Source: Patescibacteria group bacterium
GTDB taxonomy: Bacteria; Patescibacteriota; Microgenomatia; Levybacterales; UBA12049
Assembly: GCA_038063415.1 (NCBI GenBank)
Contig: JBBTVD010000006.1
Coordinates: 221,882-285,881 of the forward strand
DNA: 64,000 bases
Reading direction: 5' to 3'
This document shows positions 37,006 to 60,944 of the stretch, one piece after another (positions within the stretch are counted from its first letter, which is position 1; each line of letters starts with the position of its first letter). The notes below the pieces were generated by a model. That model was not told where the DNA came from, did no database searches, and saw only the letters and a program-made list of their open reading frames with translations. The position numbers and the translations under genes were made by a program.

Positions 37006-37015
37006 TTCTCCTCAT

Positions 37016-37155
37016 AAAAAAACCCCTCATCGGAGGGGTACTTCTTCTGCGTCAGCAAAAATTCCCCTCTTACGAGAAGCGCTTCTTGCCGATTAATTTC
37101 ACAGATGCTATAGTCATATAAGACCTATATTAACAGAGAGTAATCAAAATAACAA
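37016..37155 (-). promoter_or_regulatory. Putative promoter plus attenuator leader for the lysine operon: TTGTTA-N17-TAATAT, a 15-aa leader ORF (MTIASVKLIGKKRFS) and mutually exclusive antiterminator/terminator hairpins (GAGGGG ... CCCCUC ... GAGGGG-U7)
   Basis: On the minus strand, -35 is at 37155-37150 and -10 at 37132-37127. The leader ORF runs 37117-37070 and contains AAA and AAG-AAG Lys codons. Segment 1 GAGGGG (37069-37064) directly abuts the stop codon. The terminator is CCCCUC-CGAU-GAGGGG (37038-37023) followed by U7 (37022-37016). Confidence 0.4.
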
Positions 37156-55075: not shown

Positions 55076-55112
55076 AATGCATATTATACTACATTAGGAA
55101 TTCTGTCAAGCA

Positions 55113-55583
55113 TTAACGCTTTGGAGATTGTTTTTCGCGTCGTGCTTTACCACCGGTTCCAACATTTCGTCGTTGGCGAACGCGAGCGTCCCGAGTAAGA
55201 AATCCTTTTTTCTTAAGAATTGGACGGAATTGCTCCCGATCAACTTTATTTAATGCATTAGAAATTGCTGCGATAACTGCATCGAGTTGCCCAGCAGTAC
55301 CACCACCGGTTACACGAATAGTAAAAGCGTAATGCTTCTGGTGCGCATTGGTTATACGGATAGGTTCTGTATAGAGTTGGCGTTCGCGCTCACTTGGGAA
55401 ATATTCTGCGATAAGTTTTCCATTAACGAGGATATCTCCTTTGCCAACAGGAGTCTCTCCCCATGCCAAGTCAGCAGGGACTGTTTGATAGAGCCTTGCT
55501 CGAGCAGAAGCTTCTTTGCGTCTTCCAACGGCAAAGATATAGTCTCTCTTTTGTTTTTTTGATGGTATTGTTTTGTCTGCCAT
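55113..55583 (-). CDS. rpsI: 30S ribosomal protein S9
   Basis: YFAVGRRKEASARARL...GGGTAGQLDAVIAAISNAL...RRNVGTGGKARR. Confidence 0.95.
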   Translation of the reverse strand: MADKTIPSKKQKRDYIFAVGRRKEASARARLYQTVPADLAWGETPVGKGDILVNGKLIAEYFPSERERQLYTEPIRITNAHQKHYAFTIRVTGGGTAGQLDAVIAAISNALNKVDREQFRPILKKKGFLTRDARVRQRRNVGTGGKARREKQSPKR

Positions 55584-55598
55584 AGATTTATATAAGCA

Positions 55599-56033
55599 TT
55601 ACGATTTAAGTGCTAATTTATCTTGATATTTGTGCTCTTCTCCTTCAAAAACAAACAGTCTCTTGAGTAATCGATCTCGCAATTTGTTTTGTGGCAGCAT
55701 GCCTTTAACTGCATGCGTAATGATTTCAGCTGGTTTTCGTATGCGTAACTCTTTTAGGGTTTCTACTTTAAAACCACCTGGATAGCCAGAATGACGATAA
55801 TATTTCTTTTGTTCTTCTTTGTTACCGGTTACGGCAACATCTTTCGCATTTATGATAACCACATAGTCACCACAGTCAAGATTTCGAACAAAGTATGACT
55901 TACTTTTACCCATTAAGAGATGTGCAATTTCAGTTGAGATTCTCCCAAGTGGCTTATCTTTCACATCAATGAGATGCCATGCCCGCTTAATATCTGCTGC
56001 TTTTGTCGGTTGTGTTGCTACTGTATAATTCAT
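55599..56033 (-). CDS. rplM: 50S ribosomal protein L13
   Basis: KRAWHLIDVKDKPLGRISTEIAHLLMGK... Confidence 0.95.
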   Translation of the reverse strand: MNYTVATQPTKAADIKRAWHLIDVKDKPLGRISTEIAHLLMGKSKSYFVRNLDCGDYVVIINAKDVAVTGNKEEQKKYYRHSGYPGGFKVETLKELRIRKPAEIITHAVKGMLPQNKLRDRLLKRLFVFEGEEHKYQDKLALKS

Positions 56034-56038
56034 ATTTT

Positions 56039-56563
56039 TTAGAGACCACTCCTTACTCTACTTCGAGCTTGCTTTTGTACTGCTTCTTTCCCTGCTTTTG
56101 CTTCTTTTTTCGCAGTCAATTTTACTTGTGATGGAACATCTTTCTTCTCAACCTTTTCTTCTTTTGTTTCTTTGGTTGCCTTTACCTTAGTACTTGCTGT
56201 TTGTTTGACAGTTTTTTCAGTCCATTCAAGATAGACCATTGGCGCATTATCTGCAACTCGGTGACTATCTCTGATAATGCGAGTGTAGCCACCTTGGCGA
56301 TTAGTAAAGAGTGGCGCAAGTGATTCAATTAGCTTCGTTACTGCTGGCTGGTTTACTTTGGGATGTAATGCTCGAGTAGCACTTGTTCCACCCTTTTTTG
56401 CCTTGGTGATCAGATTATCTGCTGCGCCTTTAATAGCCTTTGCTTTGGCTTCTGTTGTTCTGATTCGTTCGTGCAAGACAAGAGAAGTCAGCAAGTTCTT
56501 AAATAACGCTTTTCTCTCATTTGCATCTCTCTTAAATTGTCTTCCAAAAACATTTTTCTTCAT
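56039..56563 (-). CDS. rplQ: 50S ribosomal protein L17 with a Lys/Glu/Ala-rich C-terminal extension
   Basis: FGRQFKRDANERKALFKNLLTSLVLHERIRTTEAKAKAI...GGYTRII, followed by a ~60-aa KEA-rich tail. Confidence 0.9.
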   Translation of the reverse strand: MKKNVFGRQFKRDANERKALFKNLLTSLVLHERIRTTEAKAKAIKGAADNLITKAKKGGTSATRALHPKVNQPAVTKLIESLAPLFTNRQGGYTRIIRDSHRVADNAPMVYLEWTEKTVKQTASTKVKATKETKEEKVEKKDVPSQVKLTAKKEAKAGKEAVQKQARSRVRSGL

Positions 56564-56570
56564 AAACCAA

Positions 56571-56697
56571 AAAAAATCGAATCTCGAAAAACGAAACTCG
56601 AAACAATGAAAAATACAAACTTTCGAAACTCAAAACATTACTTTAGCATTTTGAACGTTCGAATTTGTTTCGGATTTCGAATTTCGATATTCGAATT
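56571..56697. repeat. AT-rich palindromic array of degenerate TCGAAAC / GTTTCGA heptamers (about 9 units) between rpoA and rplQ
   Basis: Left arm aaatcgaatctcgaaaaacgaaactcgaaac. The reverse complement of the right arm is aaattcgaatatcgaaattcgaaatccgaaac. TTCGAA-type cores recur every 7-9 nt. Confidence 0.5.
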
Positions 56698-56704
56698 TAG
56701 GTCC

Positions 56705-57631
56705 TTATATATTTAAACTAACACCTTTTTCTTGCAGTTTCTCTTCAATAATTGAGATTGACTTACCACCCATATTTCTCATTGAAATGAGTTCTTTTCG
56801 TGGGGTAGCAAGAAGCTGCTCGATGTTTTCAATGCCACCATTTCTCAAACTATTATAGATTCTTGTTGGAAGATCAAGTTCATCAATCGTCATCTGTAAG
56901 ACTGCTTGTGAGATAGACGCAGTTGCTGCTGGAACTTCGTCAGTCGTTTCGACTGCTGATGGTTCATAAATCTGTCGGAAAGAATTCGTTAAGATCTTTG
57001 CTGCTTGATTAAGACTTTCTCGAGGTGAAACAGTCCCGTTTGTCCAAATCTTAAGTACTAGTTTATCAAGATCAGTTCGGCGACCAACGCGAGTTGAAGA
57101 AATAGTGTAGGTAACTCGGCGAACTGGAGTAAATACTGCATCAGTTGTCATAGAACCAAGCTCTTCACCCTTTCGCTCTTCAGCAAGTGAATAACCATAT
57201 CCTTTTTCAACGACGAGTTCCATCTCAAACTTTGACTTTTCCCCTGAGAGAGAACCAATGTAGTGATCTTTGTTTAAGATTTCAACACCATCTGGTAATT
57301 GCAAATCTGCTGCGGTAATTTCCTTTGTTCCTTTTACAGAAACTTTCACGATGACACTCTCTTTGCCATCTGCCAACTTAAAGTTAAGTTCTTTAATGTT
57401 AAGCAGTAAATCAATAATATTTTCTTTGAGACCTTGCAGTGTTGAGAATTTGTGTTTGACACCAGCAATCTTTACTGAGGTAACAGCTGATCCTGGGATA
57501 GATCCGTAGAGTACTCGTCGGATAGCATTTCCAAGAGTGTGTCCGTAACCTGATTCAAGTGGTTCAAGGACGAACTCACCAAAGTCTGGTGACGCGGTTA
57601 CTTCTTTGACTGTAAAGTGTAAATCTTGCAT
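56705..57631 (-). CDS. rpoA: DNA-directed RNA polymerase subunit alpha
   Basis: N-terminal dimerisation domain and C-terminal alpha-CTD (IDELDLPTRIYNSLRNGGIENIEQLL); 308 aa. Confidence 0.95.
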   Translation of the reverse strand: MQDLHFTVKEVTASPDFGEFVLEPLESGYGHTLGNAIRRVLYGSIPGSAVTSVKIAGVKHKFSTLQGLKENIIDLLLNIKELNFKLADGKESVIVKVSVKGTKEITAADLQLPDGVEILNKDHYIGSLSGEKSKFEMELVVEKGYGYSLAEERKGEELGSMTTDAVFTPVRRVTYTISSTRVGRRTDLDKLVLKIWTNGTVSPRESLNQAAKILTNSFRQIYEPSAVETTDEVPAATASISQAVLQMTIDELDLPTRIYNSLRNGGIENIEQLLATPRKELISMRNMGGKSISIIEEKLQEKGVSLNI

Positions 57632-57649
57632 AAGATGTATATTATATCA

Positions 57650-58252
57650 CTATCTTGAATAATATTCAATGATCATTCTTGTATTAAAAGGTGCCTGGAT
57701 ATCTGCTGCTTTTGGCATACGAGCAAACTTTCCTACAGGTCCTTTCTTATCCAAAAATGCTGCGATTTCCTTTATTTCGACAAGTTCTTTTGCAACATCT
57801 GGATTCTTTTGCATTGCTGCATCAATGGTAATAACATCACCTTCATTAACGACGTATGAAGGAATACTCATTTTTTTATCATTTACCATAACATGTCCAT
57901 GAGAAACCATTTGCCTTGCCATCATACGAGATTTTGCAAAACCTAATCGATACACAACATTGTCGAGTCTTCTTTCCAAGAATGCTAAGAGTAATTCTTC
58001 GGTATCTCCTTGCTGTGCTCGGGCGGTATTCACCAATTTTTTGAATTGCTTCTCGTACAAACCATACATTACCTTTGCTTTTTGTTTTTCACGAAGCTGT
58101 AATCCAAATTCAGATGGACGACGCTTTCCTTTACGTGCATGTACGCCTGGTGGGACATTGAGTCTTCGTAGAAGACTTGCAGATGTTTTTTCAAGAAGAT
58201 TAACTCCTTCACGTCTAGCAAGTCTATGTTTTGGTCCAGTATATCTTCCCAT
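57650..58252 (-). CDS. rpsD: 30S ribosomal protein S4
   Basis: MGRYTGPKHRLARREGVNL..., S4 domain. Confidence 0.95.
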   Translation of the reverse strand: MGRYTGPKHRLARREGVNLLEKTSASLLRRLNVPPGVHARKGKRRPSEFGLQLREKQKAKVMYGLYEKQFKKLVNTARAQQGDTEELLLAFLERRLDNVVYRLGFAKSRMMARQMVSHGHVMVNDKKMSIPSYVVNEGDVITIDAAMQKNPDVAKELVEIKEIAAFLDKKGPVGKFARMPKAADIQAPFNTRMIIEYYSR

Positions 58253-59423: not shown

Positions 59424-59485
59424 TGGAGCATTATAGCAAAGCTAGCCTACATTTTCAATGCCGATTTAATCGGATTAAAAATCAG

Positions 59486-60260: not shown

Positions 60261-60944
60261 TTAGTTTCTTTTCCTCCATTCAACGATAATACTTTCGACT
60301 GTTTGTTCTTCTGATAAGGTTGAATCATCAATTATAACATACCCTGCTGCAACTGGATCACTTACCAACGGATCTGTCTCTCGATGTTGATCACGATAAT
60401 CCCGTTCTTTAATATCTATAATCAACGCATCCAGCGAAACTGGCTCTCCTTGTGCTTGTAATTGAGCAAGCCGACGTTTTGCCCGAACTTCCTGACTTGC
60501 AGTAAGGAATATCTTGAGCGTTGCCTGCGGGAAAACAATGGTTCCCACGTCCCTTCCTTCAGCAATGACAATATGCCCTTGTGTTATTTGCTCATTACCA
60601 ATCCGCTGTTGCTCGGCCACCATATAGGAACGAACCTCCTTTATCGCCGCGACGACTGAGGAACCTTTGGCAGGCTCTGGTGCAGTGATGAGTTCTGTGA
60701 CGTCTTCGTCATGCAGAAAAACATGATTTCCCACAAATGTAACCGTAACGTCAGGGAGTGTCTCAATAACAGCTGCAGTATCATGCAGGTCAATTCCTTT
60801 CCGCAGACAAACTAAAGCAAGGCTCCGATACATAGATCCTGTATACAGATAGAATCCTCCAAGTCCTTTTGCGAGCAATCGTGCAATGGTTCCCTTACCT
60901 GCTGCCACAGGACCATCGATCGCAATAATGCCTCCCTTTATCAT
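60261..60944 (-). CDS. cmk: Cytidylate kinase, embedded in the ribosomal/secY operon
   Basis: IIAIDGPVAAGKGTIARLLAKGLGGFYLYTGSMYR (P-loop plus the Cmk N-terminal signature). Confidence 0.85.
   Translation of the reverse strand: MIKGGIIAIDGPVAAGKGTIARLLAKGLGGFYLYTGSMYRSLALVCLRKGIDLHDTAAVIETLPDVTVTFVGNHVFLHDEDVTELITAPEPAKGSSVVAAIKEVRSYMVAEQQRIGNEQITQGHIVIAEGRDVGTIVFPQATLKIFLTASQEVRAKRRLAQLQAQGEPVSLDALIIDIKERDYRDQHRETDPLVSDPVAAGYVIIDDSTLSEEQTVESIIVEWRKRN

Follow-up and report, generated by a model that had tools for sequence, protein, structure and literature searches.

The rplL-rpoB attenuator of Escherichia coli is an intra-operon attenuator, and the short tandemly repeated repetitive (STRR) heptamers of cyanobacteria add to the heptanucleotide repeats described in bacteria. 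In the TAACTGA intergenic repeats of Beggiatoaceae, Cyanobacteria and Bacteroidetes a single fixed heptamer recurs in direct orientation, with only 1 of 170 sets inverted (MacGregor, 2015; PMC4679880). Repetitive extragenic palindromes (REP), REPIN and miniature inverted-repeat transposable elements (MITE) are intercistronic or extragenic palindromes, whose proposed effects include those on termination and mRNA stability (PMC3733652; PMC3116915). An L17 leader has been predicted upstream of rplQ in Actinobacteria and Proteobacteria (L17-Actino-Proteobacteria; Eckert and Weinberg, 2020; PMC7247131); it consists of two small hairpins, spans about 50-60 nucleotides (nt) and has a conserved GUACCUGAU-type loop (PMC7247131). 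Here we analyze the spacer between rpoA and rplQ in a 64,000-nt stretch of contig JBBTVD010000006.1 (the window). Contigs identical to the locus are of Hainich groundwater origin, and the organism is a metagenome-assembled genome (MAG) of Candidatus Levyibacteriota, within the Patescibacteria or Candidate Phyla Radiation (CPR). These bacteria are uncultured, and transcription punctuation and regulation in them are almost unknown. The spacer encodes a long hairpin followed directly by a U-tract, and this architecture recurs as a phylum-wide, strand-specific RNA signature at one junction of the most conserved gene cluster of bacteria. The arms built of heptamer arrays and the cassette-like turnover are its unusual points, and attenuation is its most likely function. 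A first-pass annotation of the window had stated that nothing comparable is described for the alpha operon, which is too strong given the L17 leader upstream of rplQ (PMC7247131), structurally unrelated as it is, and the start-codon-adjacent heptamers in ribosomal-protein operons (PMC4679880). Our literature search returned no description of such elements in Patescibacteria and none of palindromes with arms made of 7-nt tandem arrays.

The spacer (positions 56564-56704, 141 nt) is unusually long for its cluster, as the first-pass annotation had remarked, the remaining cluster junctions in the window measuring -1 to 18 nt. An inverted-repeat search of the spacer gave 34-nt arms at 56573-56606 and 56665-56698 that are 82% complementary, and in a scan of the whole window this palindrome was the top-ranked and longest inverted repeat. 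Tandem Repeats Finder assigned a period of 7 to one arm (TTTCGAA, 4.4 copies) and a period of 14 to the other (2.2 copies). Folded as sense RNA the spacer reaches -38.8 kcal/mol (z = -3.2), a value equaled in none of 200 shuffles; the antisense fold reaches -31.4 kcal/mol, and both strands fold better than shuffles. The proposed palindrome of heptamer arms and the extended AU-rich hairpin on the transcribed strand are both borne out by these results. The extent originally given, 56571-56697, needs correction to a main stem at 56577-56694 of about 40 base pairs (bp), or 47 bp with weak basal extensions reaching 56565-56703, and the U8 tract at 56569-56576 had been overlooked. In the minimum free energy (MFE) structure 14 of the 47 pairs are GC and the loop is 11 nt. 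The 3' arm alone can form a local hairpin of 10 bp with 4 GC pairs (56601..56577) beside the U-tract, found in a terminator scan together with the T8, because TCGA is self-complementary. The parts of the element are these:

56665..56703, minus strand: 5' arm of the hairpin (RNA sense), TTCGAAT / ATCGAAA / TTCGAAA / TCCGAAA / CAAA plus a weak basal extension from 2 nt past the stop codon.
56607..56664, minus strand: apical part, with inner helices of 6 and 8 bp, the 11-nt loop and a 15-nt asymmetric internal loop (MFE).
56577..56606, minus strand: 3' arm of the hairpin, TTGTTTCG / AGTTTCG / TTTTTCG / AGATTCGA.
56569..56576, minus strand: U8 tract, directly 3' of the stem.
56564..56568, minus strand: GGUUU linker of 5 nt between the U-tract and the rplQ AUG.
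Whole spacer in RNA sense, stem in parentheses: GGACC UAAA (UUCGAAU AUCGAAA UUCGAAA UCCGAAA CAAA ...apical part... UUGUUUCG AGUUUCG UUUUUCG AGAUUCGA) UUUUUUUU GGUUU AUG.

The apical region is not conserved between relatives (alignments A1 and A4). The GGUUU linker contains no Shine-Dalgarno (SD) sequence for rplQ, and a consensus scan found no minus-strand promoter-like site for this gene within the spacer; a -10-like TATT lying only 0-1 nt from the ATG was rejected as too close for a leaderless start. Scans for a two-unit pattern and for inverted repeats found no second copy of the element in the window; 13 of the 19 window matches to the two-unit pattern fall inside the spacer, as do 4 of the 13 TTCGAA sites. 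The spacer sequence is exactly equal in three independent assemblies (L058-L060 in our numbering of loci), with no visible repeat-number polymorphism, so it is not an assembly artifact. Short assemblies of the same organism (L059, L060) stop inside or beside the hairpin, and such elements fragment short-read assemblies. Across the window TTTCGAA is rarer than in shuffles (5 copies, 3 of them in the spacer, against about 17 expected), and the palindromic hexamers GGGCCC, TCCGGA and GGATCC are likewise under-represented, which may reflect restriction-site avoidance.

Scans of genomes and metagenomes based on RpoA yielded about 120 Levyibacteriota-level loci (61-81% RpoA identity) together with Firmicutes and Planctomycetes outgroups; all junctions from map to rpsI were mapped in every locus, and 114 Levyibacteriota rpoA-rplQ spacers were counted. 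The spacer is at least 60 nt long in 100 of these 114 loci and contains a hairpin of at least 18 bp in 97, with stems in the 86 unique hairpin spacers having a median of 38 bp (range 18-60); outgroup spacers at this junction measure 21-53 nt. The first-pass annotation had granted that the array would lose its significance if relatives lacked a spacer or repeat here and it were merely a strain-specific expansion, and these counts settle that question in favor of the element. In the relatives the median distance from the rpoA stop codon to the hairpin is 4 nt (0-9 nt), and the U-run ends 0-7 nt from the rplQ ATG in most loci. The closest relative found (L141, 81% RpoA identity) has arms of a different type, GTCAAAA, yet its hairpin too begins directly behind the stop codon, with a U8 after it that abuts the AUG. 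In four loci (L016, L021, L026 and L077) extra sequence parts the hairpin from the ATG and the T-run remains attached to the hairpin; in three of them (L016, L021, L026) a further small hairpin, e.g., ATGACCC...GGGTCAT, stands between T-run and rplQ ATG. L109 and L117 have a tandem pair of hairpin and T-run modules, the basal lineages L122 and L133 a GC-richer hairpin with a T-run, and the compact-spacer lineages L124 and L136 a short GC or UUCG-type hairpin with T6. The hairpin with its T-run also occurs inside the infA 5' leader, between promoter and ATG, in L018, L028 and L055. The spacers that have no hairpin (L017, L031, L098, L101, L103, L126, L127, L131, L135 and L138) are 13-25 nt long and strikingly C/T-rich, e.g., ACCTCCCCCCTTT, and end in TT before the ATG; a pyrimidine tract before rplQ may be a conserved feature in its own right. 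All sequences returned by the genome, metagenome and protein searches came either from relatives at the level of Levyibacteriota (61-81% identity) or from distant outgroups outside the CPR, and no other CPR phyla were among them. Many contigs whose RpoA is about 70% identical to that of Levyibacteriota are deposited under names such as 'uncultured Gammaproteobacteria', 'Candidatus Sulfotelmatobacter', 'Methylomirabilota', 'Lysobacterales' and 'Limnocylindrales', and are probably mislabeled or misbinned MAG contigs.

The U-tract is specific to this junction and to the sense strand. A run of at least six T near the 3' end of the spacer is present in 69 of the 86 unique rpoA-rplQ hairpin spacers; of the 63 hairpins at the other junctions inside the cluster, 1 has it (Fisher p~1e-24). 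The matching A-run on the upstream side occurred just once among 89. Period-7 hairpins in this style are sporadic at the other junctions (10-25% of loci), against an occupancy of 85% at rpoA-rplQ. The arms themselves were compared in a manner independent of folding, by aligning the 5' arm to the reverse complement of the 3' arm without a wobble bonus; a G.T mismatch is then a wobble pair in the sense RNA, whereas A.C gives a wobble pair only in the antisense RNA. The rpoA-rplQ arms contain 162 G.T and 84 A.C mismatches (p = 7e-7; 42 loci versus 11). Hairpins at other junctions, which lie in the same transcripts and therefore control for a transcription-linked mutation bias, contain 43 G.T and 59 A.C. 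The excess of G.T over A.C at rpoA-rplQ indicates selection on the sense-strand RNA. At map-infA the counts are 33 and 12. The sense fold is better than the antisense fold in 29 of 38 rpoA-rplQ spacers (p~1e-4). Within the TTCGAAA family (alignment A4) the outer stem is nearly invariant and compensatory changes occur at just 3 pairs, which makes covariation a weak test; differences between families could be due to replacement rather than covariation, and for this reason we rely on the comparison of G.T with A.C.

The families at this junction are nearly site-specific. Clustering by blastn, over about 680 kb of related loci, gave rpoA-rplQ clusters of 42, 10, 8 and 7 members, of which only 3 members lie elsewhere. 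The other junctions hold different families, which recur across junctions of one genome at 76-96% identity (22 within-locus cross-junction pairs); in L007 the repeats are found at five junctions (infA-rpmJ, rpsM-rpsK, rpsK-rpsD, rplQ-rplM and rplM-rpsI), and L011, L035, L015, L013 and L093 show similar recurrence. These dispersed palindromes of the relatives, absent from the window, are 60-110 nt long with 7-nt periodic arms and have neither U-tract nor G.U bias; another lies at L141:4894-4970. They look like an undescribed repeat class of Levyibacteriota.

While the architecture is kept, the sequence of the arms is not. Comparison of the spacers showed that neither the TTCGAA of the first-pass annotation nor any other particular heptamer is conserved, and that relatives have unrelated units: the arm types are TCTCAAA (33 loci), GTCAAAA (16), TTCGAAA (15, the window included), CAGTTNT (12), GATATTA (10, with period 8) and AGGGTAA (2), besides others, among them a TCCGAATAGA type of period 10. 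Of the 97 hairpins, 69 have arms that repeat every 7 nt, and lag 7 is the best autocorrelation lag in about 30 of 38 spacers. In the CAGTTNT type the orientation of A-rich and T-rich arms is reversed. The 5' arm of L118 and L120 consists of four AGGGTAA units, whose G3 tracts 4 nt apart amount to a sense-strand motif of the G-quadruplex type; the 3' arm that pairs with it is C-rich and comes with a T-run. Families were typed by motif and placed on a neighbor-joining tree of RpoA, both of which are rough; on this tree the hairpin families are interleaved. Pairs of loci share their hairpin type as follows:

RpoA identity at least 95%: type shared in 95% of pairs.
RpoA identity 85-95%: type shared in 21-36% of pairs.
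RpoA identity below 85%: type shared in 13-27% of pairs, near the random expectation of ~20%.

The arm families are thus replaced faster than about 90% RpoA identity, under an architecture that persists. Each family is well conserved across the phylum, the window copy resembling a unit-permuted version of the TTCGAAA family; the map-infA junction of L028 has a TTCGAAA-type hairpin and T-run very like those of the window, and the infA leader of L018 a GTCAAAA-type one. The pattern points to a limited pool of cassettes exchanged or replaced at a preferred site, perhaps by recombination via the conserved flanks or by targeted insertion. Among the long simple-sequence repeats of prokaryotes, those with a heptanucleotide unit are reported to be the most frequent (Mrazek, 2007, as summarized in PMC4679880). 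Because of this, and because the dispersed hairpins share the period without RNA-level selection, we treat it as mutational: it is probably a by-product of stem growth by heptanucleotide slippage and not a recognition code. Two other accounts of the period did not hold. A segmented helix, in which a mismatch every 7 bp would act against RNase III or cruciform extrusion, was rejected, the lag-7 enrichment of unpaired positions being only 1.08 and the spacing of mismatches generally not periodic. As for stop codons in all three frames (7 mod 3 = 1), each unit of many dispersed elements contains TAG or TAA, which is not the case for the 5' arms of the TTCGAAA and TCTCAAA types.

We favor reading the rpoA-rplQ element as an intrinsic-terminator-type attenuator on the sense transcript, to which we give about an even chance of being correct; the earlier suggestion of a processing or attenuation site uncoupling rplQ from rpoA came close to it. 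The long imperfect hairpin just past the rpoA stop codon with its U-tract has the layout of a Rho-independent terminator, and a stable sense stem-loop 3' of the stop codon and a sense-only U-tract directly after the stem are both present. It would place a transcriptional boundary after rpoA and set or modulate the fraction of transcription reading on into rplQ-rplM-rpsI. A ribosome finishing rpoA would cover approximately the first 12 nt of the 5' arm and hinder closure of the lower stem, and read-through may be coupled to rpoA translation. Since there is no room for a promoter or SD sequence before the rplQ AUG and L17, L13 and S9 are essential, termination would have to be partial; the promoter-like boxes 5' of rpoA, infA and guaB make a boundary after rpoA plausible. 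A second example in the window (37013-37100, minus strand) lies between divergent genes, in the leader of an M20-family peptidase. Of the two hairpins in this leader, the second has a canonical GC stem (CCCCUC/GAGGGG) and then a U7 directly abutting the AUG; a further GAGGGG, upstream, could act as an antiterminator in competition for the CCCCUC arm. This leader, which has no Rfam match, is a candidate attenuator or riboregulator. It shows that the layout recurs in this genome and that a hairpin of terminator type next to a start codon is tolerated there.

Several points weigh against an attenuator. The window hairpin departs from the short GC-rich stem with a small loop (about 5-15 bp) of canonical terminators, as do the stems of the phylum in general, which are 25-60 bp long, AU-rich and mismatch-rich, and termination is deduced here from sequence. 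Two clades, about 12% of loci, have spacers of 13-25 nt without the element, which is consequently dispensable. Attenuation would lower the mRNA for L17, L13 and S9 relative to that for alpha, S13, S11 and S4, the opposite of what is expected for the ratio of ribosomes to RNA polymerase (RNAP), and with no downstream promoter strong termination is impossible. The module in the infA leaders fits an attenuator and would fit a leader-stability or translation element equally well, and fast replacement of families is also expected of a mobile or selfish cassette.

These objections lead to the alternatives. A post-transcriptional module, acting in processing, stability or translation rather than as a terminator, is in our estimate unlikely, if the likeliest of the alternatives. 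In one version an endonuclease (RNase E/Y-like or RNase III) would cut the U-run or the duplex, so that the rpoA mRNA keeps a protective 3' hairpin and rplQ receives a very short SD-less leader; in another the U-run would be an S1-type landing pad and the hairpin would bring the rpoA stop beside the rplQ start. Such a module would suit the lack of an SD sequence before rplQ, with many window genes looking leaderless or SD-less, the short distance from U-run to ATG, a hairpin that closes the whole spacer from a few nucleotides past the stop, the same module in infA leaders, the pyrimidine-rich spacers ending in TT that hairpin-less lineages keep, and essential downstream genes that lack their own promoter. 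It is harder to reconcile with the T-run, which stays with the hairpin and not with the ATG in the four loci where these are parted, and with the genes downstream of other junctions, which are served without a U-run (1 of 63). As regards RNase III, whose substrate is ~20 bp or more of near-continuous duplex, the main stem is long overall but in the window copy is broken every 6-8 bp. A selfish or portable palindromic cassette (REP/MITE-like), at a permissive or targeted site and with no host function, we regard as improbable; the architecture would then persist simply as each cassette is a palindrome. It would account for the interleaving of families on the RpoA tree and the decay of type sharing to nearly random, for the TTCGAAA- and GTCAAAA-type hairpins at map-infA elsewhere (L028, L018), and for the dispersed families with their 22 cross-junction pairs. 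Set against this are the near site-specificity of the rpoA-rplQ families, with only 3 of the 42 members of the largest cluster lying elsewhere, the far higher occupancy of this one junction, the single copy in the window, and the site-specific U-tract and the bias of G.U over A.C, which the dispersed elements do not have and which point to selection at the level of the transcript.

Proteins of the CspA family, like IF1, are capable of transcription antitermination, and one may picture the 7-nt units as binding an oligonucleotide-binding (OB)-fold protein for single-stranded RNA (a cold shock protein (Csp), IF1 or S1-like protein, with some 7 nt to each domain) or a ribosomal protein, which would melt or lock the hairpin and so bring about antitermination or L17 autoregulation. 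We think such a protein-titrated array doubtful, a shade more so than the cassette. The period of 7 in 69 of 97 hairpins, whatever the unit sequence, would speak for it; CspB binds one heptamer per protein, and Csp, S1 and CsrA have been proposed as binders of start-codon-adjacent heptamer repeats, ribosomal-protein operons included (PMC4679880). The units, however, differ wholly between families and the arm orientation flips in the CAGTTNT type, which makes a sequence-specific binder or mimicry of an L17 rRNA site unlikely and counts against the first-pass proposal of an array of binding sites. Periods of 8 and 10 also occur, the period is shared by dispersed hairpins without RNA-level selection and so looks mutational, and no Csp was found among the small window open reading frames (ORFs) tested. 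An element acting at the DNA level, as a cruciform or as an operator array for a TTCGAA-recognizing protein, seems very improbable: TTCGAA is palindromic and locally enriched in the spacer, and both strands fold better than shuffles, but the strand asymmetry, with a U-run confined to the 3' side of the sense strand and an excess of G.T over A.C, argues for RNA, and the TTCGAA motif is not conserved in relatives. Least credible of all, to the point of being negligible, is a strain-specific microsatellite expansion or assembly artifact. The arms are tandem-repeat in nature and short contigs do break at or near the element; identity in three independent assemblies and the same junction in 97 of 114 loci refute it.

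Within the attenuator reading, a more elaborate version can be framed, which we offer as a long shot. A pool of interchangeable terminator cassettes, each with its own U-tract, would be swapped horizontally after rpoA and occasionally in the infA leader, the heptamer register would govern the cooperative binding of an OB-fold chaperone with a 7-nt footprint (Csp, IF1 or S1-like) that melts the stem, and the attenuator would tune L17, L13 and S9 against alpha. If true, a chaperone- or translation-controlled attenuator in organisms with few SD sequences would be a regulatory RNA class not previously described.

The element lies in a long cluster on the minus strand. The surrounding features are these:

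Gene order, minus strand: secY-adk-cmk-map-infA-rpmJ-rpsM-rpsK-rpsD-rpoA-rplQ-rplM-rpsI-guaB.
57641..57669, minus strand: candidate internal promoter TTGAAT-17-TATAAT (with TG) directly 5' of rpoA, a consensus match only (10/12).
56705..57631, minus strand: rpoA, RNA polymerase alpha, 308 amino acids (aa), stop TAA at 56705-56707 (from the ORF list).
56039..56563, minus strand: rplQ, L17, 174 aa, ATG at 56563-56561 (from the ORF list).
55599-56033, minus strand: rplM, close downstream of rplQ.
55113-55583, minus strand: rpsI, downstream of rplM.

The rpoA product is a 100% match to a protein named DNA-directed RNA polymerase subunit alpha at NCBI and has the Pfam domains RNA_pol_A_bac, RNA_pol_L and RNA_pol_A_CTD; on the identical contigs rplQ, rplM and rpsI are assigned Pfam Ribosomal_L17, L13 and S9. 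Promoter-like boxes lie directly 5' of rpoA (57641-57669), infA (59430-59458) and guaB (55081-55109), and the first of these is a candidate to feed an rpoA-hairpin-rplQ unit. The infA promoter, TTGCTC-17-TATAAT, is conserved in relatives. Many window genes have a TATAAT-like box 6-11 nt 5' of the ATG and no SD sequence, which suggests that mRNAs are leaderless or have very short leaders and that the "operon" contains several internal promoters. Within the spc/alpha cluster, adk and map are separated by the cytidylate kinase gene cmk (60261-60944, minus strand). The 3' end of cmk runs into the map ORF at its longest, for which the TTG at 60331 is probably a start placed too far upstream.

For the CPR the rpoA-rplQ element offers a concrete, testable candidate for an intra-operon attenuator, and one that combines a conserved architecture with very rapid replacement of sequence families. 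Elements of this kind will escape annotation pipelines and terminator predictors that are tuned to short GC-rich stems, and assemblies tend to break at them. Rfam returned no family at the gathering threshold for the whole window, and at E<=10 the local region gave only generic hairpin matches far below threshold. The L17 leader of Actinobacteria and Proteobacteria occupies the same position between rpoA and rplQ and is likewise a proposed cis-regulatory RNA, but the Levyibacteriota element has no conserved loop or sequence and is not a member of that family. With the TAACTGA and other long simple-sequence repeat (LSSR) heptamers it shares intergenic 7-nt tandem units that often end by an SD-less start codon, also inside ribosomal-protein operons; here, by contrast, two inverted degenerate arrays form a long hairpin, the units vary by family and a U-tract follows. 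It resembles REP, REPIN and MITE sequences in being an imperfect intercistronic palindrome, and the relatives do have truly dispersed copies at other junctions, whereas the rpoA-rplQ families are essentially single-site, single-copy in the window, and have heptamer periodicity in their arms. Compared with intrinsic terminators and attenuators, the sense stem-loop directly before a U-tract is the same, and the difference lies in the Levyibacteriota stems, which are long (25-60 bp), AU-rich and built of 7-nt tandem-repeat arms where canonical ones are 5-15 bp and GC-rich. The rplL-rpoB attenuator differs in that the present element has the RNAP gene upstream and the ribosomal-protein genes downstream, its U-tract abuts the next start codon and its termination is putative; in both cases the element sits at a boundary between RNA-polymerase and ribosomal-protein genes in a long cluster, where essential downstream genes imply partial read-through.

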